From assembly GCA_034188985.1 (NCBI GenBank), contig JAXHVT010000023.1, forward strand, positions 62,005 to 126,004: DNA of 64,000 bases. Direction: 5' to 3'. This DNA is from Actinomycetota bacterium. GTDB lineage: Bacteria; Actinomycetota; Geothermincolia; Geothermincolales; RBG-13-55-18. The notes under the pieces were generated by a model. It had not been told where the DNA came from. It did no database searches and worked only from the letters and a program-made list of their open reading frames with translations. Each line of letters begins with the position of its first letter. Positions within the stretch are counted from its first letter, which is position 1. Shown here one piece after another: positions 31,815 through 63,323 of the stretch. A program made the translations under genes and the position numbers.

Positions 31815-32069
31815 ATGCGAATATCGGACAGAGAGATAGAGAACTCGCTGCGGTTTTTATCCCAGGAGCCCTTCGCATCGGGCGGAAAGCCGCACATTGC
31901 GCAGGATATAGAGCAGATGGTGCTGGGGCAGCTGAGGGAGATGCCGGATGTCCGGATGGACAGGGTGCTATCACTACGCACCGCCATCCAGGAGAAACGC
32001 TATTCGGTGTCCAGCGAGGACGTGGCCAAGAAGATACTTGGCCGCTGCGTTGCCGATCATATCCGTTGA
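31815..32069 (+). CDS. flgM: FlgM-family anti-sigma-28 factor (orphan)
   Basis: 84 aa. C-terminus RVLSLRTAIQEKRYSVSSEDVAKKIL resembles the FlgM sigma-28-binding helix. Strong SD (AAGGAGG). No flagellar genes in the window. Confidence 0.45.
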   Translation: MRISDREIENSLRFLSQEPFASGGKPHIAQDIEQMVLGQLREMPDVRMDRVLSLRTAIQEKRYSVSSEDVAKKILGRCVADHIR

Positions 32070-32138
32070 CGTGCAAGAGATGGTGCTCAGAAGAAAGGCG
32101 GCCCCTGCGGGGGCCGCCTTTGATATCGGTAGGGTCCG

Positions 32139-33330
32139 TAGCTGAATGGCCTCGATAAGGTTGGCTCCCTCCTGTACGCCGCCGCACAGGGTAGCCATAT
32201 CGTACCTGGCGCCTTTCTCCTTGAGGATGCGGGCCAGGGAGCAGGTGAGCATGGGCCCGGAACAGGCCAGGGGGTGGCCTATGGCGATAGTGCCCCCTTG
32301 ACGTTGACCTTCTCCGGGCCCAGTCCCAGCTCCCTGATGCCGTACAGGGTGATCACGGCGAAGGTCTCGTTTATCTCTCAGTACTCGATATCGCCAATAT
32401 CCATCGCAGCTTTCTACAGAGTCATCCTGGAGGCGGGGAACGGACCCACGCCCATTAAACCGGGATCGACGCCCGTCCATTCCATGGATACGACCCTCGC
32501 CAGGGGCTTGAGTCCCAGTGAATCGGCCTTGTTCTCGTTCATAAGGAGCACCGCGGTGGCCCCGGCGTTCAGGGATGAGGAGTTTCCGGCCGTTATCTGA
32601 CCATCGGGCTTGAAGGCCGGCTTGAGCTCGGCCAGCTTCTCCATGGTGGTGCTGGCGCGCATGGAGAGATCGGTGTCGAAGCGCTGCACGCTTCCGTCCT
32701 CCTGCTCCACCTCGACTGGAAGGATCTCGCCCGCGAAATAGCCCTCCTTTACCGCCCTTGCGGCTCTCTGGTGGCTGAACAGGGACCACTCGTCCATCTC
32801 CTCCCTGGTGATGCCAGACTGGCCATGGAGCTTCTCGGCGGTCAGCCCCATGCTCATAGCGGTCTGGAAATCGAGCTGCTTCAGGCTCTCGTCCTGGAAG
32901 AACCTGGGGTTTATAGCCATGAGGTCGGTGCTCCCCGGCGGATCCAGGGGAACGTGAGTCATGTGCTCCATGCCGCAGACCAGAACTAGGTCGGAACAAC
33001 CGAGAATTTTATCCATGGAACCCTGGTGGAGGGCGGACACCCCGGAGATACATACCCGGTCCATTCCCTGTGCCGGGGTGGTCACGGGCAGGCCGGCCAG
33101 GAAGGCAATGGTTCGACCGCCCATGAGGTAGTACGCATCTGCAGGGCGCAGCCCACCAGGAGGTCGTCGATATCCTCCGGGTTCACCTGGTTGCGGGACA
33201 GTATCTCCTTCACCAACAGAGACAGCGCATCGTCCATCCTCAACTTGTTGAAGGCGTCTCTCTCCGGTTGACGGGACCTGGATCTGGAGTAGGGGGCTCT
33301 GAGCATGTCCACGATAACCGCTTCGGTCAT
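32139..33330 (-). pseudogene. Acetyl-CoA acetyltransferase (thiolase) pseudogene with multiple lesions
   Basis: Thiolase homology is spread over three frames: N-terminus 33330-33130, middle 33124-32417, C-terminal fragments 32376-32139 (contains GHPLACSG). There is a frameshift near 33125-33135. In-frame TAG at 32414-32416 (GPFPASRMTL*KA). In-frame TGA at 32378-32380 (DIEY*EINETF). A frameshift sits in the C5 run at 32294-32298 (KGG/TIAIGHP). The native stop after ...IEAIQL is absent. Confidence 0.6.
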
Positions 33331-34219
33331 CTTTTCCTACTTTGGTTACGTTTCCCAGAATATATTAATCGTAGGTTAATACTATTGTGGTTCCGTATGT
33401 CTTAACGGAACTTAGGCCCGGGCATAGCATATATAGATGCCGTAATGGCTCTCGCGCGACCCAAGGCCCGCTTATGAGCCGAGAGGTTCCGGGATCCGAG
33501 ACCTTGCGGCTCTCCTTGAACGGTTGGGCTTGCCACCTGGGACCCGTTCGGATCATTCCAGCCTTATCCTGGGCATGAAGAGGGAGAGGGCGAAGGCCAG
33601 ACCAGCCACCACCACCGCCGTAAACACATGTGGCTTCAACAGGGTCGGTGCCGGCCCTTCAGACTCGGGCCGAAGAGACTTATAATAATGGTGGAAGGTT
33701 TCGGCCCGGGTCTGTGGTTGAAAGTCGATGCTAGCCGCAGGCGAAACGACCCACGTAAGCCAACTTTTTGTTGGTGAGCATGGTGCGGCTTAGGGGTAAG
33801 ACCTGCCCGGCTCAGATCCGGAGAAGCGCAATAGTGGCGGGCATTCCGGTAACCCTTGAAGGGCGGATTCCCGCTGCGAGCCGCTCAGCAGGCGAGTGTG
33901 GGGTCAAAGACCAGGTCAGCCGGGTTCGAAACCTTTTAATAAAAACGATGCTCCCCGCGGTTATACGCGGAGGCCTGGTGGGGGCCCCGCCGGAAGGGAA
34001 ACGACGGACGGGGACCCTGCGATGAGACGGCGTATCGAAAAGCGAGTGGGATTCGAGGGATTGTGTGGAGGCCCGGAAACGCGGGGTTCATATGGTGGTG
34101 GACTTTCTTGGCACAGGAATAAACCTGTGGTAGGCTTATGCGAGTCAAAAACGAGATAAACCGGGGCAGCCCCGGGTATTCGATGAGCTTATATAGCTTA
34201 TTTATAGGGATCGAGGTCG

Positions 34220-34834: not shown

Positions 34835-34941
34835 TATGCGCAAGTTCCTGGACATGGTGCGGCAGGTGCTCGATTACGTGATACGACGCGGGGCCTCGAT
34901 GCGCCTTTGAGATCCCGTCGGAGAAGAGTAGAAAGGCAATC

Positions 34942-36564
34942 ATGAACAGGCGAGTTACAACCCTGGGCGCCCCGTTCCTGGTGGGCTCGTTGGGGGTCAT
35001 ACTCTACCTTACCTTGGTCTCCGACCAGCCTATATTCTGGTTCTCGGTGATCCTTCTGGGGATGCTGATCGTAATCTGCGAGACTCTGGGCGAGAAAATG
35101 GTATCGGGAGGCAGGTCCACCTACGGTATCATAGCGCTTTTCGGTGCTATCGCAGCTCTCAATACACCCTCGGCCATGATAGTCGCGCTGCTCGGTTCGT
35201 TACATCTGCTTCTTATACGTCGCAAAGACGAGCCGGGGAATATGCTCTATAGCGGCGCGGTTTATGCCATAGGTACCTGGGCGGCGGCCGCTCTCTATCA
35301 CGCCCTGGGCGGGACCTCACGCCTGTTCACGTTCGGTGACGGAATGCGTTCCATAGCGCCTCTCCTGGCGGCGGCGGCGGCCTTCTGGGTCATAAACACC
35401 GTTTTCGTTGCCGTGGCCCTGCATTGGTCGAAGGGGGTGAAACCCAGGGATTTCCTGGCCTCGGACGCCTTGAGGCTGCTCCCCAACCAGCTCATATACG
35501 CCCTGGTGGGGTTGGGAGTGGGAGTTATATATGCCCAGAACGCCTTTCACCTGGACCCTCTCAGTGGAATGATTGTGGGCTCCACGGCCGAATCGCTGCG
35601 CGGCCTCTTCGCCGTGCTGTGCCTGATCGCGCTTCTCGGTGTGGCCTGGTATTTCAGCGGCAAGAACATCGAGCTCCTGGAGGCTTATGACCGCAGCATA
35701 GAGGTTCTGGTTACCCACCTGGAGAAGAGGGAGCCCTACCTCGACGGCCACGCCGTGCGGGTGGCGGAATACGCATCCATGATCGCCAGTGATATGCATC
35801 TGCCCTTTTATGAGGTCAACCGCATACGACACGCTGCCTTGCTGCATGACCTGGGGCGCCCGGCGATACCCCGCGAGATACTGCTGAGGCGTGGAGCCTT
35901 GAGCGAGGAGGAATTCGAGAAGGTCAAGACGCATCCTCTGGAGGGAAGCACGCTGCTCGAAGAGGTGGAGTATCTCTCCGATATGGCGGAGGCGGTGCGT
36001 CACCACCACGAGTATTACGACGGTGGAGGCTATATAGACCATATCTCCGCCGACACCATACCGCTGAGCGCCCGCATTATCGCGGTGGCCGACGCTTACG
36101 ACGCTATGCTTCACCACAGGCCCTGGAGGGATGCCAAGGGCCCGAAAGGAGCGGCGGCGGAGTTGAGGCAGAACAGCGGCAGGCAGTTCGACCCCGATGT
36201 AGTGGAGCATTTCCTATCCTCCCTGGAGCGGTCCGCGGTGGTGGAGGAGGCCGGTGCCGAGACCATGGGGCGGGCGCCGGTCGAGGCGGAGCCGCGGGAC
36301 AAAGCCGAACCTCGTCCTAGGGGGCGCAGGACGAAGCGGCGCGAGGAGATGCTGCGCGCCCGCCGGGAGGCGAGGGAGCGTATAGAGCGAGAGGCCTTGC
36401 AGGCCCTGGAGGAGCCACGGGATACGGAGAAGGAGGAAATGTATTCAGGCGGCGGAGCCGGCGATTACGCGGATACCACGGGTCGGGATCCCGGGCCCGT
36501 TGAGCCGGAGGAGAACCCGCCTCCGGAGGATAGGCCACCCGATGAGGGGGGTGAGAGGCCGTGA
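34942..36564 (+). CDS. 7TM-sensor membrane protein with HD-GYP-type phosphodiesterase domain (variant HHExxDGGGYI)
   Basis: ~8 N-terminal TM segments, then an HD domain (LLHDLGRPAI...HHHEYYDGGGYIDH). Arg/Glu-rich low-complexity tail. Confidence 0.7.
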   Translation: MNRRVTTLGAPFLVGSLGVILYLTLVSDQPIFWFSVILLGMLIVICETLGEKMVSGGRSTYGIIALFGAIAALNTPSAMIVALLGSLHLLLIRRKDEPGNMLYSGAVYAIGTWAAAALYHALGGTSRLFTFGDGMRSIAPLLAAAAAFWVINTVFVAVALHWSKGVKPRDFLASDALRLLPNQLIYALVGLGVGVIYAQNAFHLDPLSGMIVGSTAESLRGLFAVLCLIALLGVAWYFSGKNIELLEAYDRSIEVLVTHLEKREPYLDGHAVRVAEYASMIASDMHLPFYEVNRIRHAALLHDLGRPAIPREILLRRGALSEEEFEKVKTHPLEGSTLLEEVEYLSDMAEAVRHHHEYYDGGGYIDHISADTIPLSARIIAVADAYDAMLHHRPWRDAKGPKGAAAELRQNSGRQFDPDVVEHFLSSLERSAVVEEAGAETMGRAPVEAEPRDKAEPRPRGRRTKRREEMLRARREARERIEREALQALEEPRDTEKEEMYSGGGAGDYADTTGRDPGPVEPEENPPPEDRPPDEGGERP

Positions 36565-37931
36565 AATTCGACCGCGAGAAGGCGTTGCGCTGGTTGTCCA
36601 GCATCCTGTGCCTGTTGGTACTGGCGGCCTGCATACCTTTCATAAAGTGGGGCGACCTGGATCCGGGAAGAACCCTGGGGCTGGTGGCCATACTGGCCTT
36701 CTTCGAGACGTGGCGTATCCAGTATCGTTGGGGAAGGCCGCTGCGCCTGGGCATGGCCGTCACCCTATGCGTCATGGCCATAAGGCCCCTCCCGGAGGCG
36801 GTCTGGATATTCTTCCTGGGAAGCATGCTGGGCCGGGGGGTCTCAATGGCCATCCACAAGGAGGAGGAGAGCGATTTCTTCCACATCGTGCAGCGTACCT
36901 ATATCGTGGCCTTGACCGCCCTGGTCTACCAGGTGATTATCAACCTGGGATGGAATTTCACCTGGAATCCCTACCCGCCCAATTTCTTCGGGCCGGGACC
37001 GGCCAGCGCCACGGAGTTCTTCACCTATTACAATCCCGCCGTGCTCCAACGCGCCCTGGTCTTTCCCATCGCCTTTATCGTTATGGCCGTAATCTTCTAT
37101 CTGGGCGAGGTCTTCACGTCTTCGGTGGAGACGGGGATGACGCTCTCCGGCAGCTGGAGGGTAATCCTCCCCCAGCATATGCGGCAGACCTTTCCCGCCT
37201 ACCTCGCCATCTCGGGGGCGGGCGCCCTCATGGCCCTGTATTTTCCCCGCATCGCCTGGTTCAACTTTCTGATCTTTTTCATACCCTTGTTGCTGGTACG
37301 CCTGGAATCCAACCGGGACAAGGAGCTGGACGAGAGATATTTCCAGACCATGCGCATCATTGGCGATGCCTTCGACCTGGCCAGGGGCCTTCCCGGTCAT
37401 TCCGGCCGGGTGAGCAACCTGTCCGCGGAGGTTGCCAGGGAGATGGGCGTGGCCAGGGACCTGACCCGCAATATCCGCTACGCAGCCGCGCTGCACGATA
37501 TCGGCCGCGTCGAGTTCGAGGGCGATGAGGAGGCCAAGGGACACGCGGAGCGGGGCGCGGAGGTGCTCGAGCAGGTACCTCGCCTCCAGCCTATCGCGGA
37601 TATTGTGCGTTACCACCATCCCGGTCCAGGTGATGAGGCTGGAACCCAGCGCCTGGAGATGGGGTCGAAGATTATCGGAGTGGTCAGCGACTACGACCTG
37701 CTGACCAACCGGGCCTCCAACAAGCTCTCCTCGGAGGAAGCATTGAAGGAGATGAGCGTGGAGCGAGGAAAGCTCTACGATTCCAAGGTGCTGCGAACCC
37801 TGGCCCAGGTGGTGGAGACGCAGGCCATGGCGCGTCGCCGCCCGGAGAGGGAGATCCAGCAAAGAGCCAAGGTCCTCGAGAAGGAGGAGCTGGGGGAGAG
37901 CCTGGAGGAGATATTCCGGGATAAGGAGTAG
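36561..37931 (+). CDS. 7TM-sensor membrane protein with divergent HD domain (paralog of upstream gene; HHP, no GYP)
   Basis: GTG start overlapping the upstream stop (GTGA). It has the same architecture as its upstream neighbour. HD is present (LHDIGRVEF), but the metal-binding HHE is replaced by [11 protein letters not shown] and the GYP motif is absent. Confidence 0.65.
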
Positions 37932-40698: not shown

Positions 40699-41803
40699 AT
40701 GCTTGGCGATCATGTAAGCGAACTGGAGGGGTTGGCCGGCAGGCTCGTGAAGATAAAGGAGTATCTTTGACATAGAAGGTAAAAGGAGCCGGGTGGCCGA
40801 GCTCGAGAAACAGAGCGCCAGGCCCGATCTCTGGGATGACCAGGAGAATGCCCGGCGCCTGTTGGGGGAGCTCTCCAATACCAAGGAACTGGTGGATAGC
40901 TGGGAGAGGCTATCGGGGGACAGCGGGGAGTTGGGCGAGTTGATCCAGTTGGCAAGGGAGGAGGATGACTCCAGCCTCAGCGAAGAGATAATCCAGGGCG
41001 TGGAAAGGCTGCGACGTGAGGTGAATCGGCTGGAGGAGGAGAGTCTCCTGGGCGGAGAGCTTGACTCCCACGACGCCATCGTCAGCATCCATCCTGGAGC
41101 GGGTGGGCTGGAATCCCAGGACTGGGCTGAGATCATGCTGCGGATGTACCTGCGTTGGGCGGAGTCGAGGGGGTTCAAGGTGGATCTCAACGACGTGCAG
41201 CCCGGGGATGGAGGCGGGATTAAGAGTGCCACCTTTACCATTCATGGCCACAACGCATACGGTCTTTTCATGTCTGAGAAAGGCGTTCACCGCCTGGTGC
41301 GCATCTCCCCCTTCGACGCCTCGCATCGCCGCCACACCTCCTTCGCCTCACTGGACGTGATCCCCATGCTGCAGGAGACGGGCGAGATCGAAATAGACCC
41401 CAAGGATCTCCGCGTGGAGACCTACAGGTCGAGCGGGGCCGGGGGGCAGCACGTTAACGTCACCGATTCGGCCGTGCGCATCACCCACGAACCCACGGGC
41501 ATTGTCGTTTCCTGCCAGAACGAGCGTTCTCAGATATCCAATCGTCAGACGGCCATGCGCATATTGGAGGCACGGCTGGCTGAGCGGGTGCGGCAGGAGC
41601 GGGAAAAGAGGATAGAGAAGCTGCGGGGCGAGAGGAAGGATATCGGCTTCGGGAGCCAGATACGCTCCTACGTACTCCATCCCTATCGCATGGCCAAGGA
41701 CCACCGAACCGATCTGGAGATAGGCAACGCGGACGCCGTGCTGGACGGCGACCTGGACGACCTCGTCGACTCCTACCTGCGCTGGAAGGCCACCCCCGAC
41801 TAA
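40699..41803 (+). CDS. prfB: Peptide chain release factor 2, programmed +1 frameshift at CTT TGA C (40765-40771)
   Basis: Frame 0 runs ATG 40699...AAGGAG TAT CTT TGA (40768-40770). The +1 frame continues GAC ATA GAA GGT... into the RF2 body. GGQ appears as SSGAGGQHVNVTDSAVRITH. ORF track only reports 40793-41803. Confidence 0.9.
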
Positions 41804-52026: not shown

Positions 52027-52374
52027 TGGTGGAGGCGGGGGGAGTCGAACCCCCGTCCAGAAACCCGGCCCAGTGGGCTCTACGAGTGTATTCGCCGGTT
52101 ACATTCGCCCCCGGGAAGCCCGGCGAAAGGCTGACCCGGTGACTATCCCGTTAAGGATGTCCCTAAGCCCTTACGGGAGTCGGGCTTCGGTGATCCCGCT
52201 AAACGACGCCCCTTCCCCGGTCGCGGGCCTCCCGGAGAGGAACGGGTCGCGTTATTACGCGGCCAGAGCTAACTCGCTGTCAGCATCTATTGGTTTTCCC
52301 GATTCTTAACGGGGTTCGGGGCCCCGGCTCGCTCCCGCTCGAACCGCCGATCCCTGTCGAAGCCGTTTCGCCCC
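52027..52374 (-). ncRNA. ssrA: tmRNA (SsrA)
   Basis: Minus strand reads 5'-GGGGGCGAAACGGCUUCGACAGGG...GGACGGGGGUUCGACUCCCCCCGCCUCCACCA-3'. Acceptor stem has a G3:U70 pair. Tag ORF GCT GAC AGC GAG TTA GCT CTG GCC GCG TAA TAA encodes ADSELALAA. Lies downstream of smpB. Confidence 0.85.
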
Positions 52375-52497
52375 CACGTTTTCAATGTCCAATGGATAAT
52401 CGATATCCTACCAATATTTTAGCACCTGAAGTCCGAGGCTGTATCGCACACGACCATGGCGGGCACGATCGCCGGGCATACCCCGGCGCTAAGTTCT

Positions 52498-59489: not shown

Positions 59490-59565
59490 TGGAGCGGGAG
59501 ACGGGATTCGAACCCGCGACACCGAGCTTGGAAGGCTCGTACTCTACCAACTGAGCTACTCCCGC
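59490..59565 (-). tRNA. tRNA-Gly(TCC)
   Basis: Reverse complement GCGGGAGUAGCUCAGUUGGUAGAGUACGAGCCUUCCAAGCUCGGUGUCGCGGGUUCGAAUCCCGUCUCCCGCUCCA folds as a cloverleaf. Anticodon loop CUUCCAA. Confidence 0.85.
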
Positions 59566-59656
59566 ATGATGACAGACCATATTTTATCATAGCAGCACCC
59601 GATGTCCGATGCCGGTGAACGAACCCATCCCCGTGGATCATGAGCGCCCAGAACCC

Positions 59657-59780
59657 AAAACGTCAGAAGACGGGGTCACTAACATCGGACGTTTTCGGGG
59701 ACTGGAACATGAATGGCCTCAACCGTATCGCTATCCTGCGATGAGCTCCAGGCATCAGGCCGTGGCTGACCCCGGTGCAT
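59657..59780. repeat. Dispersed repeat family, copy D (long form) between tRNA-Gly and tRNA-Pro
   Basis: aaaacgtcagaagacggggtcactaacatcggacgttttcgg has terminal inverted arms AAAACGTC/GACGTTTT. It is followed by ~80 nt alignable with copy C. Confidence 0.5.
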
Positions 59781-59801
59781 GGGGTGATATAATCTTGGCG
59801 T

Positions 59802-59879
59802 CGGGGTGTAGCGCAGCTTGGTTAGCGCGCATGCTTTGGGAGCATGAGGTCGGCGGTTCAAGTCCGCCCACCCCGACCA
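59802..59879 (+). tRNA. tRNA-Pro(TGG)
   Basis: CGGGGUGUAGCGCAGCUUGGUUAGCGCGCAUGCUUUGGGAGCAUGAGGUCGGCGGUUCAAGUCCGCCCACCCCGACCA; anticodon loop UUUGGGA. A TATAAT lies at 59787-59792. Confidence 0.85.
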
Positions 59880-59933
59880 GATTTTGAGGCCATGAACACC
59901 GGTGCTCTTGATCGATGTTTAGGGGGGAGAGAG

Positions 59934-60560
59934 ATGCCCGAGGAAACAGGCTGGTTTGTACCGACCATACAGTTTGGAAAGGAGGACGTTTTTCTCTTTG
60001 AGGATTGGGAGGAAACGCCGGTAGGGCCTTACAGGGCCGTCTTTCATTTCAACCCCGACGATTTCCGCACCCTCTACGCCTCCACGCCGGAGGGTGGGGA
60101 TTTCGTCTCGAGCGTTCACCGCTTCGACGAAAAAAACGTAGTCGAGGTGAAATCGAGGCGAAACGGCGGCAGGTGGACCATAGAGGCGGACACGGGGGAT
60201 AAGGGCCCGCTGAAGATAGAGATAGACTACCGCGAGACCGGCCTGCTCAAGCTGGTGAATCCCATCGCTGCATATACTCCGAAGGCGATCGCCCGCAATG
60301 CCCTGTACTGCCGGCTGCTTCCCCGTATCGCCGGCCCCATGCTGGGGATTGACTCCGACCAGAAGATCGCGGCGGAGACGGAGATGGGACGTAAGGGCTG
60401 TTTCCAGATGTACAGGATCTACAGGGTTATCGCCGCCACCTGCACCTGGGGCGACAGGGATATGGGCCCCCTCGAGGATTGCTGCTACGATCACGACATA
60501 GGCGGTTTTAAGTTAACCACCAAGCCCATTATCAGTTATCTCACCCTCTATCTGGACTAG
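59934..60560 (+). CDS. Hypothetical protein
   Basis: 208-aa ORF after a GGGGGGAGAGAG SD. The ORF-track start (59844) would overlap tRNA-Pro. No recognised motif. Confidence 0.45.
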   Translation: MPEETGWFVPTIQFGKEDVFLFEDWEETPVGPYRAVFHFNPDDFRTLYASTPEGGDFVSSVHRFDEKNVVEVKSRRNGGRWTIEADTGDKGPLKIEIDYRETGLLKLVNPIAAYTPKAIARNALYCRLLPRIAGPMLGIDSDQKIAAETEMGRKGCFQMYRIYRVIAATCTWGDRDMGPLEDCCYDHDIGGFKLTTKPIISYLTLYLD

Positions 60561-60715
60561 CCCGCCTCCGCGCGAGAAAGACAGGGGAGGTCGGGAACTT
60601 GTCGGCAGGGCATAGCGGAGATATCATTAACCACTGAGCAATCAGCGATCAGGCTCGACCCATGTGGGCGTGTATCACGGGGACGGGTCGATGTTGGTCG
60701 AGGGGAGCCGGTGGG

Positions 60716-62218
60716 ATGCTCAAACCTACTCGGAAGGATCTGCGCAACATCTTCCACAACGTGGGGGGAGTCCTCATGCTGCTCGGATTATGCATGCTGG
60801 TCCCCCTCATCATCAGCGTGGTCGCGAAGGAATGGGGGACGGTCATCGATTTCGCCATCTCCGCTTTCGTCACCGTCGGGGTGGGCAACCTGCTCTATTT
60901 CGGCCTGCGTTCCCGCGGCAGGGTCACCTGGAACCAGGGCCTGGTTATCGTGGCTCTCTCCTGGTTTCTGGCCATGCTCTTCTCCGCCATCCCCCTCTAC
61001 CTGTCTGGCCATTTCGCCTCCTATCTCGACGCCTGTTTCGATTCCATGTCCGGCCTGGCCACCACCGGCCTGGCCCTTATCCACGACCTGGATCACCTTG
61101 CTTACGGCATGAACTTCTGGCGCCATCTAATCATGTTCCTGGGTGGCCAGGGGATCGTCATCCTGGTCATAGCCTACTTCGTCGCCGGCTCCAGCACCGC
61201 GACTCAGATGTACACGGGCGAGGGCCGGGAGAGCATCATGCCCAACGTTATCGAGAGTTCCCGCTTCATATGGAAGGTCAGCGTCATCTACTTGGCCGTA
61301 GGCACCATTTCGCTGGGCCTCTGTCTGCTCTTCCAGGGCATGGCGCCCGTGCGGTCCTTCTTCCAGTCTTCCTGCTTATTCATGGCCGGATTCGATACCG
61401 GGGGCTTCACCCCCCAGGCACTGAGCATCATCTATTACCACAGCATGCCGGTGGAGTTGATCACCATAGCCTTCATGCTCCTGGGCATGTTCAATTTCGC
61501 CGTGCAGTACGAGGTATGGAACCGCCGTCCCCGCGAACTGGTCAGGAACATCGAGACGCGGACTCTTACCTTCACCGTCCTGGCCACCATGGTGCTGGTG
61601 ATAGCCGGCTTGTGCATAGTGGGGGCCTTCGGCTCCTTCGAGGCCACCCTGCGCCGGGGTGCCTACCAGCTAATATCGGGCCACAGCGGTACCGGATTCA
61701 TGACCGTATACGGCACCCAGATGGGGATGCGCTGGGGCGAGATAGCGCTCTTCGGGCTGATTATAGCCATGGGCCTGGGGGGCTGCGCCTGCTCGACATC
61801 CGGGGCTATCAAGGCTTTCCGGGTGGGGGTGGTGTTCAAGTGGCTGAAGCTCAAGATAAAGCAGGCCCTGTCCCCGGCCTCCGCGGTGGTCATAGAGCGC
61901 ATCCACCACGTAAAGGATTTTACCATGACCGAGGGGCTGGTCGGCGCCGCTCTGCTGACCACCCTGCTCTACATCGGGCTCTACCTGCTAGGGGCCCTGG
62001 TAGGTCTATTCTACGGCTACGGCTTTACCGCCTCCGCCTTCGAGTCGGTATCCGCGGCGGGCAATGTGGGCATGACCACCGGCGTTACCCATTACACCAT
62101 GCCGGTATTTCTAAAGATCGTATATATAGTCGAGATGTGGGCCGGAAGGCTGGAGATACTGGCCGTGGTGGCCATGTTCGCCTACTTCTTTAACTTCCTG
62201 AGGAGGGGGCGGCGTTGA
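60716..62218 (+). CDS. trkH: TrkH/KtrB-family cation (K+) transporter
   Basis: 500 aa polytopic; repeated M-P-M units with SGLATTG-type selectivity motifs. Confidence 0.8.
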   Translation: MLKPTRKDLRNIFHNVGGVLMLLGLCMLVPLIISVVAKEWGTVIDFAISAFVTVGVGNLLYFGLRSRGRVTWNQGLVIVALSWFLAMLFSAIPLYLSGHFASYLDACFDSMSGLATTGLALIHDLDHLAYGMNFWRHLIMFLGGQGIVILVIAYFVAGSSTATQMYTGEGRESIMPNVIESSRFIWKVSVIYLAVGTISLGLCLLFQGMAPVRSFFQSSCLFMAGFDTGGFTPQALSIIYYHSMPVELITIAFMLLGMFNFAVQYEVWNRRPRELVRNIETRTLTFTVLATMVLVIAGLCIVGAFGSFEATLRRGAYQLISGHSGTGFMTVYGTQMGMRWGEIALFGLIIAMGLGGCACSTSGAIKAFRVGVVFKWLKLKIKQALSPASAVVIERIHHVKDFTMTEGLVGAALLTTLLYIGLYLLGALVGLFYGYGFTASAFESVSAAGNVGMTTGVTHYTMPVFLKIVYIVEMWAGRLEILAVVAMFAYFFNFLRRGRR

Positions 62219-62805
62219 AGAAGATAATCCTGCTCCTGATGCTGGCGGTGGCCGTCATGGCCCTCTTCACCGTCCCGGCGACGGCGCGGGGGGAGGGGAC
62301 CGAGGTCACTGTCTCTCAACTGTTGGAGGACTGGGAGGAATACGACGGGCGTGAGGTTATCCTGTGCGGCGAGGTGGTGGGGGACGTCATGGCCAGGGGC
62401 GAATACGCCTGGATAACCGTAAACGACGATACCTACAGCCGCCAGGCCCTGCATGAGGAGGGAACCCTGGACGGGCAGAACAGCGGCATCGGGGTGTGGC
62501 TCCCGACCGGCGAGGCGGAGAAGATAGGGCGGCTGGGCAGGTACGGGAGCATGGGCGATTTCGTAGAGGTGCGGGGTATATTCCGTGCCGATGACGAGCA
62601 GCACGGCGGGGATTTCGATATCCAGGGCCAGTCATTGACTATCCTGGAGAAGGGGCGGTCGGTGGACACTTCCCCAGACGGCTGGGAGTACTTCGCGCTG
62701 GGAGCGGCACTGCTGTTTCTACTGGTAAGCCTGACCCCCATCCTCAAGCGGAGGGCGCTCGAGATGCAGAGAGCCAAGGCTCTCCTGGCCCGTGAGGAGG
62801 ACTAA
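62215..62805 (+). CDS. Secreted OB-fold (YgiW/BOF-like) protein with C-terminal TM anchor
   Basis: TTG start overlapping the trkH stop (TTGA). Signal peptide MKKIILLLMLAVAVMALFTVPATA, BOF-like TVSQLLEDWEEYDGREVILCGEVV, C-terminal hydrophobic helix. Confidence 0.45.
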   Translation: MKKIILLLMLAVAVMALFTVPATARGEGTEVTVSQLLEDWEEYDGREVILCGEVVGDVMARGEYAWITVNDDTYSRQALHEEGTLDGQNSGIGVWLPTGEAEKIGRLGRYGSMGDFVEVRGIFRADDEQHGGDFDIQGQSLTILEKGRSVDTSPDGWEYFALGAALLFLLVSLTPILKRRALEMQRAKALLAREED

Positions 62806-62839
62806 GCCGTCACCCGTTACCGGTCTTACTTAAAAAAAA

Positions 62840-62916
62840 TGGGGTGAGGGACGGGACTTGAACCCGCGACCTCTGGGGCCACAACCCAGTGCTCTACCTG
62901 CTGAGCTACCCCCACC
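62840..62916 (-). tRNA. tRNA-His(GTG)
   Basis: Reverse complement GGUGGGGGUAGCUCAGCAGGUAGAGCACUGGGUUGUGGCCCCAGAGGUCGCGGGUUCAAGUCCCGUCCCUCACCCCA. Has the extra 5' G(-1) typical of tRNA-His. Anticodon loop UUGUGGC. Confidence 0.85.
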
Positions 62917-62928
62917 ATATTATTATCC

Positions 62929-63004
<76 letters not shown>

Positions 63005-63238
63005 ATATCATACCGGGGGAAATATCCCTCCCGACAAGGTGAATTATAGCATGGGACAGCCTCGCATTGTCTCGTTGCCGGAGCAAGTTGCCGTGATAGA
63101 ATGAGGTCATATCGGAGCGCCCAGCGGCTTGCTTCCAACGTATTCTCAGGCCGCGGAAGCCATGCCCTTTGTCTTGGGCTTTGACGTTTGCCATGCCCCT
63201 TTCCCTGTAGTAGCATTAATTACGTTCCACCGGGACGG

Positions 63239-63323
63239 GCGAGAGTGGCGGAATAGGCAGACGCGCTGGGTTTAGGACCCAGTGGGTAAAACCGTGGGGG
63301 TTCGAATCCCCCCTCTCGCACCA
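63239..63323 (+). tRNA. tRNA-Leu(TAG), long variable arm
   Basis: GCGAGAGUGGCGGAAUAGGCAGACGCGCUGGGUUUAGGACCCAGUGGGUAAAACCGUGGGGGUUCGAAUCCCCCCUCUCGCACCA. Anticodon loop UUUAGGA. Confidence 0.8.

Follow-up and report, generated by a model that had tools for sequence, protein, structure and literature searches.

The Streptomyces proteins HdgA (vnz_24090/SCO5218) and HdgB (vnz_24095/SCO5219) are membrane-bound and encoded by adjacent, probably co-transcribed genes; HdgA consists of six transmembrane segments and an HD-GYP domain, and HdgB of six such segments and a degenerate HD-GYP domain without the GYP residues (Al-Bassam et al. 2018, PMC6205966). The membrane domain of HdgA has been assigned to MASE9 (Galperin and Chou 2021). 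S. venezuelae mutants lacking either hdgA or hdgB show no phenotype, and the authors are doubtful that the two genes have a conserved role in c-di-GMP metabolism (PMC6205966). Streptomyces has no other HD-GYP proteins, and no role is known for these two.

The metal ligands of the HD-GYP enzyme PmGH are E185, H189, H221, D222, H250, H276, H277 and D305; the Glu of its HHE motif is not among them (PMC4159591). HD-GYP folds without catalysis are found in DvhD (9RBZ), which is a c-di-GMP receptor, Bd1817 (3TM8), HnoD and ECA3548, and these proteins act by binding or through protein-protein interaction.

The locus described here lies on a stretch of 64,000 nucleotides (the window) from a member of the Geothermincolia. 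ORF A (34942..36564, 540 aa) and ORF B (36561..37931, 456 aa), both on the + strand, reproduce the HdgA/HdgB arrangement, in which a TM-HD-GYP gene directly precedes a same-strand TM-degenerate-HD-GYP gene that lacks GYP. The GTG start of B overlaps the TGA stop of A (GTGA, 36561..36564, + strand), and A and B are translationally coupled, as had been read from this overlap in the initial annotation. L001, L002, L007, L088 and L089 share this 4-nt overlap; the genes abut in L003 (0 nt) and are separated in L086 (+2 nt), and wherever the start of B is clear the A-B junctions span -4 to +2 nt. Taken as a whole, the locus is best explained as an hdgA-hdgB-type module in which an active A is accompanied by a non-catalytic partner B, a reading that we consider probable. 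In the following paragraphs we discuss the two gene products, their recurrence as a pair and their relationship to known systems.

Gene A (34942..36564, + strand) is assigned as an HdgA-like protein with a MASE9-like membrane domain and an HD-GYP domain from Pfam, PDB matches and 73 orthologs. A predicted MASE9-type membrane sensor of about eight helices (residues 1-240; 34942..35661, + strand) precedes the stalk helix and HD-GYP catalytic domain (residues 241-432; 35662..36237, + strand), after which come a charged, mostly disordered tail, delimited by pLDDT and conservation, and the stop codon (residues 433-540; 36238..36564, + strand). The tail has a single predicted helix (463-490), with pLDDT below 50 at 442-461 and 495-540, and is weakly conserved (mean top-residue frequency 0.41).

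In Pfam, A matches HD_5 (4e-38) and HD (6.6e-19); among PDB sequences it matches V-cGAP3 (5e-27), DvhD (3e-26), PmGH (3e-23) and PA4781 (5e-17), and active HD-GYPs are matched strongly in both sequence and fold. The HD-superfamily fold carries the complete H...HD...H...HH...D ligand set, and all PmGH-equivalent ligands, HHE, DG.GY and RxxR are invariant in the 73 orthologs. A Tyr stands at the position of PmGH E185, a mark of the binuclear subtype; PA4781 and V-cGAP3 likewise have a Tyr there instead of the Glu for a third metal. The HHE region reads HHHEYYDGGGYI. The motif HHHEYYDGGGYID (residues 354-366; 36001..36039, + strand) is a GYP-to-GYI variant, HHEYYDGGGYI being the full HHExh(D/N)GxGYP apart from the replacement of Pro by Ile. 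That GYI is atypical, as had been remarked at the outset, is borne out by the counts: the residue after GY in A orthologs is I in 48, V in 19, L in 4 and P in 3, against P in 68 of the 76 other HD-GYP matches. The PmGH variants G284A, Y285A and P286A all stay active (PMC4159591), so the change is unlikely to affect catalysis, and we regard GY[I/V/L] as a fixed lineage-wide variant that, by analogy, should not abolish catalysis by A. RxY[K/R] is represented by R393-P-W-R396, both Arg residues being invariant. The KPG position is occupied by R316-R317-G318 (RRG; in the family Q/K/R, then P/K/R, then G/S), and because this element is itself degenerate the substrate is uncertain. From its motifs, A is most likely a binuclear phosphodiesterase hydrolysing c-di-GMP or a related cyclic dinucleotide.

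Eight membrane segments, including two short helices, are predicted for A and fit the MASE9 layout; MASE9-HD-GYP proteins of the T. maritima TM1467 type (Galperin and Chou 2021) likewise have eight segments, two of them short helices, followed by HD-GYP. Unlike MASE9 proteins, A of the window stays below the Pfam threshold (PF20972; 19.4 bits vs a gathering score of 24.3), with 51 of the 77 A-family members being matched by the model (best E 1e-7). None of the 72 members of the B family matches it. The helix layout of B is the same as that of A, and the membrane domains are linked by profile-profile comparison only: hhalign gives 88-92% for profiles widened with distant relatives, against about 1% for a reversed control, and a probability of 0.6% for narrow, ortholog-only profiles. 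The HD domains of A and B are 25% identical (BLASTP E 1e-12). The initial annotation had described seven to eight TM segments plus an HD domain in each protein, and this is what is found, with about eight predicted helices in the N-terminal half and an HD/HD_5 match in the C-terminal half. The near-identical architecture that it attributed to the two genes holds for domain order and fold but does not extend to the sequences.

The predicted fold of both membrane domains resembles the S components of ECF transporters. Identity to the S components CbiM, RibU, FolT, BioY and ThiT is 6-14%, the likeness being one between predicted models only, and, unlike in ECF transporters, no ECF T or A components are found beside A and B in the window, the setting being one of signalling and not transport. 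An ECF-S-like fold of MASE9-type domains would provide a concrete, testable idea of how such sensors bind ligands; E49, W57, R59, P60 and R62 are conserved at the putative pocket of B, and vitamins and transition metals are candidate ligands.

The 7TMR-HD c-di-AMP phosphodiesterases typified by PgpH (PF07698 plus HD) also join a multi-helix membrane domain to a cytoplasmic HD-superfamily phosphodiesterase. Assignment of A and B to this group was rejected: there is no match to PF07698 at E<=1, and their HD domains are closer to HD-GYP structures than to that of PgpH.

Gene B (36561..37931, + strand; 456 aa) encodes an HdgB-like membrane domain and a degenerate HD-GYP-like domain predicted to be non-catalytic for c-di-GMP. 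Residues 1-250 (36561..37310, + strand) form the membrane domain of about eight helices, a remote homologue of that of A. Alignments of 68 orthologs delimit a stalk and degenerate HD domain (residues 251-420; 37311..37820, + strand) and a conserved, charged C-terminal helix followed by the stop codon (residues 421-456; 37821..37931, + strand). The membrane domain and this C-terminal helix are the most conserved parts of B; in the tail the mean top-residue frequency is 0.79, and all 68 orthologs share P428, R430, E431 and A436. The fold of B is that of HD-GYP in searches with the predicted model, and the NCBIfam HDIG cut-off is passed. Searched by sequence against the PDB, B retrieves no HD-GYP structure and only a Cas10 HD domain at E 1e-3.

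B reads RYHHPGPG at the HHE region. A loop at residues 350-361 (37608..37643, + strand) stands in place of HHExxDGxGYP; it is short, acidic and without Tyr, and pLDDT falls below 50 at 356-360. GYP is thus absent from the translation, as first annotated. The accompanying claim that the HHE metal ligand had been lost is wrong in detail, H352 and H353 being present and only the Glu replaced, by Pro; as set out above, this Glu is not a metal ligand in PmGH. H280, H312, D313, H328, H352 and H353 align with PmGH ligands, i.e. six of the seven ligands of the binuclear type. The sole altered position is the equivalent of D305, which the alignments agree in placing at S376, with D377 adjoining (S376-D377-Y378-D379; 37686..37697, + strand), the Asp being shifted by one; D379 is the equivalent of PmGH D308. 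Across the 68 orthologs, position 376 is S in 53, C in 8 and T in 7, position 377 is D in 55, A in 7 and T in 2, and position 379 is always D. The finding that the initial annotation had named as speaking against it, conservation of all metal ligands in the second copy, is thus nearly the case, because only the D305 position is altered.

The prediction that B is inactive towards c-di-GMP is still the better reading, although the argument from lost HH ligands fails. Neither HHExxDGxGYP, KPG nor RxY[K/R] is present in the window copy, and the ortholog alignments contain no conserved RxxK; a 13-residue deletion spans the loop equivalent to KPG of A, and no acidic residue of B aligns with D183. 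B has lost its nucleotide contacts (the loops bearing KPG and the GYP Tyr, and RxxK) together with the canonical Asp ligand, and the second metal site is unconstrained family-wide; B is therefore most likely not a c-di-GMP phosphodiesterase. Judged by its residues, with six of the seven ligands and an Asp beside the seventh, the protein in the window could still bind metal and hydrolyse something. We consider it unlikely that B is an active, metal-dependent HD hydrolase of another substrate (a linear nucleotide, a second messenger or a phosphomonoester), the pair then carrying out two sequential or parallel hydrolytic steps. The HD superfamily does include mononuclear phosphomonoesterases (PMC4159591), and none of the 68 orthologs departs from H280, H312-D313 and D379-R283; distant B-types retain a minimal H..HD..D set. 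An enzyme should keep its ligands, whereas H328 is retained in 57 of 68 orthologs and lost in 11, H353 is retained in 62, the H352 position is shared among H, C and S (30/14/14), and D377 is lost in 13. In P0072, the deepest ortholog, H328, H352 and H353 are missing, V replaces D377 and C occupies the D305 position. In deeper B relatives the H250 equivalent and HH are entirely lost, and in the B-types of Actinomycetes HH is missing and the D305 position is taken by N or S, comparable to N265 of the inactive Bd1817; moreover, no conserved new pocket motif was found in B.

B might alternatively be a catalytically dead c-di-GMP receptor comparable to DvhD, with the nucleotide bound in its HD-GYP pocket, signalling inside-out via its membrane domain. 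The three nucleotide contacts that DvhD keeps, namely GYP loop, KPG region and RxxR, are all missing from B, whose L7/8 loop is deleted as well, which makes such a role improbable. The interpretation of B as a decaying pseudogene was rejected: its frame is intact in 68 orthologs and it diverges no faster than A, with identities at the same loci of 72 vs 68%, 53 vs 55%, 50 vs 47% and 27 vs 28% for B and A, respectively. At least 95% conservation is seen in 23% of its membrane-domain columns, which also counts against a pseudogene. The window copy represents an intermediate state in which HD, HH and H328 are kept and the nucleotide contacts are lost; because it retains ligands but not these contacts, it could help to order the steps from HD-GYP enzyme to pseudoenzyme.

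Besides the window, 12 loci have the same-strand A-then-B arrangement, those of Lapillicoccus and Streptomonospora among them. The juxtaposition of A and B is not due to chance, because both genes recur in every related locus with enough flank. Geothermincolia have this order, and so do a distant lineage with about 27% identity, an Actinomycetota MAG, Lapillicoccus and Streptomonospora. The genes hpf and secA flank the pair in the window, as they do in L001-L007, L081, L082 and L084. Only in L086-L089 (the Actinomycetota MAG, Lapillicoccus and Streptomonospora) does it lie behind a sigma70 gene and a zf-HC2 anti-sigma gene; no such sigma/anti-sigma pair stands upstream of A and B in the window. 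SCO5216/5217 of Streptomyces we take to be sigR/rsrA, which would place hdgA-hdgB (SCO5218/5219) behind a sigma/anti-sigma pair as well.

Recurrence also bears on the idea that A and B are functionally independent, their adjacency being a remnant of tandem duplication. Each protein could homodimerise (the passages of the BACTH report at hand give a homomeric HdgB interaction and no HdgA-HdgB result), and ortholog counts in Streptomyces differ slightly, HdgA being found in 76 and HdgB in 79 of 93 genomes (PMC6205966). Yet A still precedes B, with stop and start codons overlapping or abutting, where identity is down to about 27%, this holds in three unrelated neighbourhoods (that of hpf and secA, and the sigma/anti-sigma one in each of two orders of Actinomycetes), and neither gene occurs without the other in any locus with enough flank; independence is, in our estimate, very improbable. 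Because the coupled pair persists at this identity across several actinobacterial classes and in three neighbourhoods, A and B likely work together under selection. In this respect the persistence of the pair argues for what the negative deletion phenotypes of Streptomyces could not show.

A B-type profile retrieves 807 cluster representatives at E<=1e-30, mostly of 410-450 aa and without GYP and HHE. The named members belong to the Micrococcales and Streptosporangiales (Lapillicoccus and Streptomonospora, from two cluster look-ups); among the matches of a word-indexed profile search with B-types there was no named Streptomyces protein. In a neighbour-joining tree built on 185 saturated columns the HD domains of the B-types group together as a single clade (bootstrap 0.71), some pairwise distances being saturated; support for B-type monophyly is moderate and may be inflated by long-branch attraction. 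With an HMM of the B orthologs, two canonical MASE9-HD-GYP proteins score as high as the Actinomycetes B-types.

A conserved small ORF of 24 codons (34836..34910, + strand) lies between hpf and gene A; neither its length nor its position differs among 7 loci. Its differences by codon position are 171/69/229, GGAGG is found upstream, and it has no Pfam match. It may be in the same transcription unit as A and B and is a putative member of the system. A terminator scan did no better than on shuffled sequence (7 vs 5.5), and it showed no clear terminator in any of the intervals separating hpf, A, B and secA. GGDEF and EAL motifs are absent from the long ORFs of the window, and no c-di-GMP riboswitch was found in it.

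In the favoured reading of an active A with a non-catalytic partner, A would pass signals from an eight-helix MASE9-type sensor through a long stalk helix to a complete binuclear-type HD-GYP domain. B would be an ancient paralog of A with the same layout and with the nucleotide-binding elements lost, and may have the role of a sensor, or of a partner regulating A, without catalysis of its own. Translational coupling would fix the A:B ratio, and pairing is plausible through the stalk helices, which dimerise other HD-GYP proteins. A more far-reaching version, to which we attach a rather low probability, is that A and B form an obligate heterodimer, ancient in Actinomycetota, in which the catalytically dead B would bind a membrane-accessible small ligand through its ECF-S-like membrane domain and gate the phosphodiesterase of A allosterically, the Geothermincolia module being part of a raiA-RNA/hpf/small-ORF/secA unit. 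If this were true, cyclic-dinucleotide turnover would be coupled to ribosome hibernation or dormancy in Geothermincolia.

Compared with PmGH (4MCW), PA4781 (4R8Z) and V-cGAP3 (5Z7C), active HD-GYP phosphodiesterases of known structure, A shares the fold, the binuclear ligands, HHE, the Tyr of GYP and RxxR, and differs in the Ile after GY, in RRG for KPG and in its membrane sensor, which takes the place of GAF or REC; B has no more than the fold and some of the ligands in common with them. Among the non-catalytic proteins, Bd1817, with Asn at the D305 equivalent and no GYP Tyr, is similar to the B-types. DvhD, HnoD and ECA3548 have lost HD and/or HH ligands and retained the GYP loop, whereas B shows the reverse pattern: HD and, in the window copy, HH are kept, and KPG, GYP and RxxK are gone.

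The pair is of a kind already described, a distant new example and not a new system; the basic classification is unchanged, and the interest is modest and mainly for specialists. With HdgA/HdgB it has in common adjacency, the succession of an active-type and a degenerate HD-GYP gene, multiple TM segments and an actinobacterial host, and related Actinomycetes pairs have the same order and a 4-nt overlap. It differs in coming from MAGs of the class Geothermincolia, in being about 25-30% identical to the representatives from Actinomycetes that were compared, in lying between hpf and secA where the HdgA/HdgB-type Actinomycetes pairs lie behind sigma/anti-sigma genes, in having GY[I/V/L] in place of the GYP of HdgA-type proteins, and in keeping in B the HH and the H250 equivalent, both lost in Actinomycetes B-types. 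Likened to it by architecture, gene order and the neighbourhood in other Actinomycetes, and not through Streptomyces sequences, the pair in the window is in our judgement likely to be the Geothermincolia version of the actinobacterial hdgA-hdgB module.

Genes A (34942..36564, 540 aa) and B (36561..37931, 456 aa) are both found on the forward strand, exactly where the initial annotation had placed them, and the proposed GTGA overlap is correct: nucleotides 36561-36564 comprise the GTG start of B and the TGA stop of A, with a purine-rich tract upstream. The start of B is well placed, because its orthologs are conserved at the N-terminus from residue 1. The architecture of seven to eight transmembrane segments plus an HD domain also holds, with about eight hydrophobic helices within the N-terminal 240-250 residues of each protein and a C-terminal half matching Pfam HD_5 and HD (4e-38 and 6.6e-19 in A; 6.8e-12 and 5.6e-11 in B). 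The pair follows a ComF-like gene, FlgM, a raiA-motif RNA and hpf, and precedes secA, prfB and a PHP-domain gene.

Several neighbouring elements were also recognized. The FlgM anti-sigma-28 homolog (31815..32069, +; Pfam 9e-11) sits after the ComF-like gene and before the raiA RNA, and the order comF-flgM-hpf-secA-prfB resembles the Bacillus arrangement. The raiA-motif noncoding RNA upstream of hpf (33701..33928, +; Rfam RF03072, 169.9 bits, full length), a member of a known RNA class (PMC10861870, PMC12968392), is directly preceded by a promoter-like TTCAGA-17-TATAAT (33658..33686). One nucleotide past the hpf stop there is a 24-codon ORF (MRKFLDMVRQVLDYVIRRGASMRL*, 34836..34910, +) with GGAGG 5′ of its start and no Pfam match. 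At an unchanged position and length (75 nt) it recurs in six related loci (L001-L004, L006, L007), with 171, 69 and 229 differences at the three codon positions; of the codon differences, 147 are synonymous and 173 non-synonymous. Loci L081 and L084 have a similar small ORF there. The prfB gene (40699..41803, +) contains the classical programmed +1 frameshift: a short ORF0 begins with ATG at 40699 and ends in CTT TGA C (40765..40771), with AGGAG just 5′, and the main frame runs into a 336-aa ORF listed from 40793. A thiolase-like gene on the reverse strand (~31974..33330) appears to be broken across three reading frames (33082..33330, 32414..33124 and part of 31974..32999), which could reflect frameshifts, a pseudogene or assembly errors. 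A tmRNA gene (52027..52375, −; RF00023, 169.9 bits, full length) and five tRNA genes (59493-63320) lie further downstream.

Residues ~250-430 of A match the solved HD-GYP proteins V-cGAP3 (5e-27), DvhD (3e-26), PmGH (3e-23) and PA4781 (5e-17). Residue equivalences for A were transferred from the active phosphodiesterase PmGH, whose ligands are taken from Bellini et al. (PMC4159591). The ligand positions of A are H270 (PmGH H189), H302/D303 (H221/D222), H331 (H250), H355/H356 (H276/H277) and D384 (D305); further equivalents are E264 (D183), R306 (K225), Y364 (Y285), D387 (D308) and R393/R396 (R314/K317). All are invariant or conservatively replaced among 73 orthologs. Y266 occupies the position of PmGH E185, and a Tyr here marks the binuclear subfamily. 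Residues 354-366 read HHHEYYDGGGYID, and the GYI motif is indeed atypical: GY is followed by I in 48 orthologs, V in 19, L in 4 and P in 3, whereas Pro occupies this position in 68 of 76 other HD-GYP hits. The closest outgroups carry canonical GYP, so GYI is a real, derived feature fixed in this lineage. The PmGH mutants G284A, Y285A and P286A are still active (PMC4159591), and GYI is therefore no ground for predicting catalytic loss. At the KPG that contacts the second guanine A has RRG, and this position is variable across the family; the substrate, c-di-GMP or another cyclic dinucleotide, is therefore a prediction.

The HD domain of B matches that of A with 99.5% probability in profile comparison, and BLASTP, hhalign and MAFFT agree on the equivalences. 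The HHE metal ligand was initially thought to be lost from B; both histidines (H352/H353) are in fact kept, and P354 replaces the Glu, which is not a ligand. With H280, H312/D313 and H328, six ligands are thus retained in the window copy, but S376 stands at the D305 position, with D377 the next residue; D379 and R283 are the counterparts of the structural pair D308-R192 of PmGH. The loss of GYP is borne out. All elements that touch the nucleotide are missing: the KPG-bearing loop is gone through a 13-residue deletion, the 19-residue GYP loop is exchanged for a shorter, acidic, Tyr-free one (residues 350-361), and there is no RxY[K/R]. No acidic residue of B aligns with the putative catalytic D183 of PmGH, the conserved D272 being two residues further upstream. 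The predicted inactivity of B toward c-di-GMP stands on the lost KPG, GYP and RxY[K/R] elements, on the Ser at the D305 position and on ligand losses across the family, and not on a loss of HH from this copy. With its six ligands, the window copy could still have residual metal binding or another activity.

Among 68 B orthologs H280, H312, D313, R283 and D379 are invariant, and H328 (57/68), H353 (62/68) and D377 (55/68) are mostly kept; H352 is found in only 30 (Cys in 14, Ser in 14). The H250 and HH positions are wholly lost in the deepest ortholog, P0072, and in more distant B-types, where the D305 position is N or S, as in the inactive Bd1817 (N265). B is nonetheless under purifying selection, being as conserved as A in the same genomes (B vs A identity 72 vs 68%, 53 vs 55%, 50 vs 47% and 27 vs 28%). 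Columns conserved at 95% or more make up 33% of the HD domain and 12% of the membrane domain in A, vs 19% and 23% in B, whose C-terminal helix is also highly conserved. Relative to A, constraint in B has thus moved to the membrane domain and C-terminal helix, the pattern expected of a pseudoenzyme or repurposed domain, not a working c-di-GMP phosphodiesterase.

Approximately 70 orthologs each of A and B (45-80% identity) were found, all of them in Actinomycetota MAGs that carry the names Candidatus Solincola, Geothermincola or Geothermincolales. The order comF-hpf-A-B-secA-prfB-PHP is retained in six genome loci, three of which have an A/B junction of −4 nt and one a junction of 0 nt. In a more distant lineage two B-like proteins (P0076, P0077; 27% identical to B over the full length) occupy the same place (FlgM-CSD-hpf-A-like-B-like-secA-prfB); they lack H250 and HH, and the motif of the A-like protein next to them is GYV or GYP. 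In a third group (P0081-P0089), set in a very different neighbourhood, the upstream partner is a MASE9/HD_5 protein with canonical HHERVDGRGYP, preceded by sigma-70-family and zf-HC2 anti-sigma genes. This context was observed in Actinomycetes relatives at L086 (1604..7320), L088 (1753..6326) and L089 (1695..6311), the latter two with a small unannotated ORF (44-86 aa) 5′ of the A-type gene. An exhaustive profile search yielded 807 cluster representatives (E≤1e-30), most of them 410-450 aa long; neither GYP nor HHE is present in 126 of the 147 top B-type representatives. Members with a name were found in Lapillicoccus (Micrococcales) and Streptomonospora sediminis (Streptosporangiales), where the B-type gene overlaps the preceding HD_5 gene by 4 nt, downstream of a sigma/anti-sigma pair. 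In a neighbor-joining tree built on the HD domains, all B-types fall together (bootstrap 0.71) and the A-types stand among canonical HD-GYPs; given saturation and long branches, this lends moderate support to a single ancient duplication.

The N-terminal domain of A is probably of the MASE9 type, which Pfam detects in 51 of 77 family members (best E 1e-7), the window copy falling just under threshold. Predicted models offer an ECF-like fold of the membrane domains as a lead; no link between MASE9 and S components was found in the literature consulted. In both proteins the N-terminus is probably cytoplasmic and the number of membrane passes even, which would place the HD domain on the cytoplasmic side. 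The final membrane helix appears to run on into this domain as an extended stalk (A 215-261, B 234-275); by such a stalk PmGH dimerises and transmits signals (PMC4159591), as does DvhD. A would act as a cyclic-dinucleotide hydrolase controlled by its membrane domain, and B, made in step with A through the stop/start overlap, would pair with it via the stalks and tune it, or add a second ligand input. We consider it likely that an active A and a B without catalytic activity, or at any rate without activity on c-di-GMP, form a module of the HdgA/HdgB type; a physical A-B heterodimer is a more doubtful proposal.

Inactive HD-GYP proteins are known in DvhD (a c-di-GMP receptor), HnoD, ECA3548 and Bd1817; these have mostly lost HD/HH ligands and kept the GYP loop, the reverse of B. 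The window pair has the same composition and gene order as Streptomyces HdgA/HdgB. S. venezuelae has exactly two HD-GYP proteins, the 6TM-HD-GYP HdgA (vnz24090) and HdgB (vnz24095), a 6TM-degenerate HD-GYP “missing the key GYP residues”; both are membrane-bound, and their adjacent genes are “very likely in an operon” (PMC6205966). HdgA is present in 76 and HdgB in 79 of 93 Streptomyces genomes, and neither has a deletion phenotype (PMC6205966). Galperin and Chou assigned HdgA to MASE9-HD-GYP, with c-di-GMP hydrolysis as a personal communication, and a 2026 study again predicts HdgB to be inactive and notes its homomeric interaction. The S. coelicolor orthologs are SCO5218 (HdgA) and SCO5219 (HdgB). 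Profile searches and the sigma/anti-sigma context tie the window pair to the Actinomycetes pairs; SCO5216/5217 are sigR/rsrA. Orthology with HdgA/HdgB is inferred through these ties, and the window pair would be a distant further example of this known kind.
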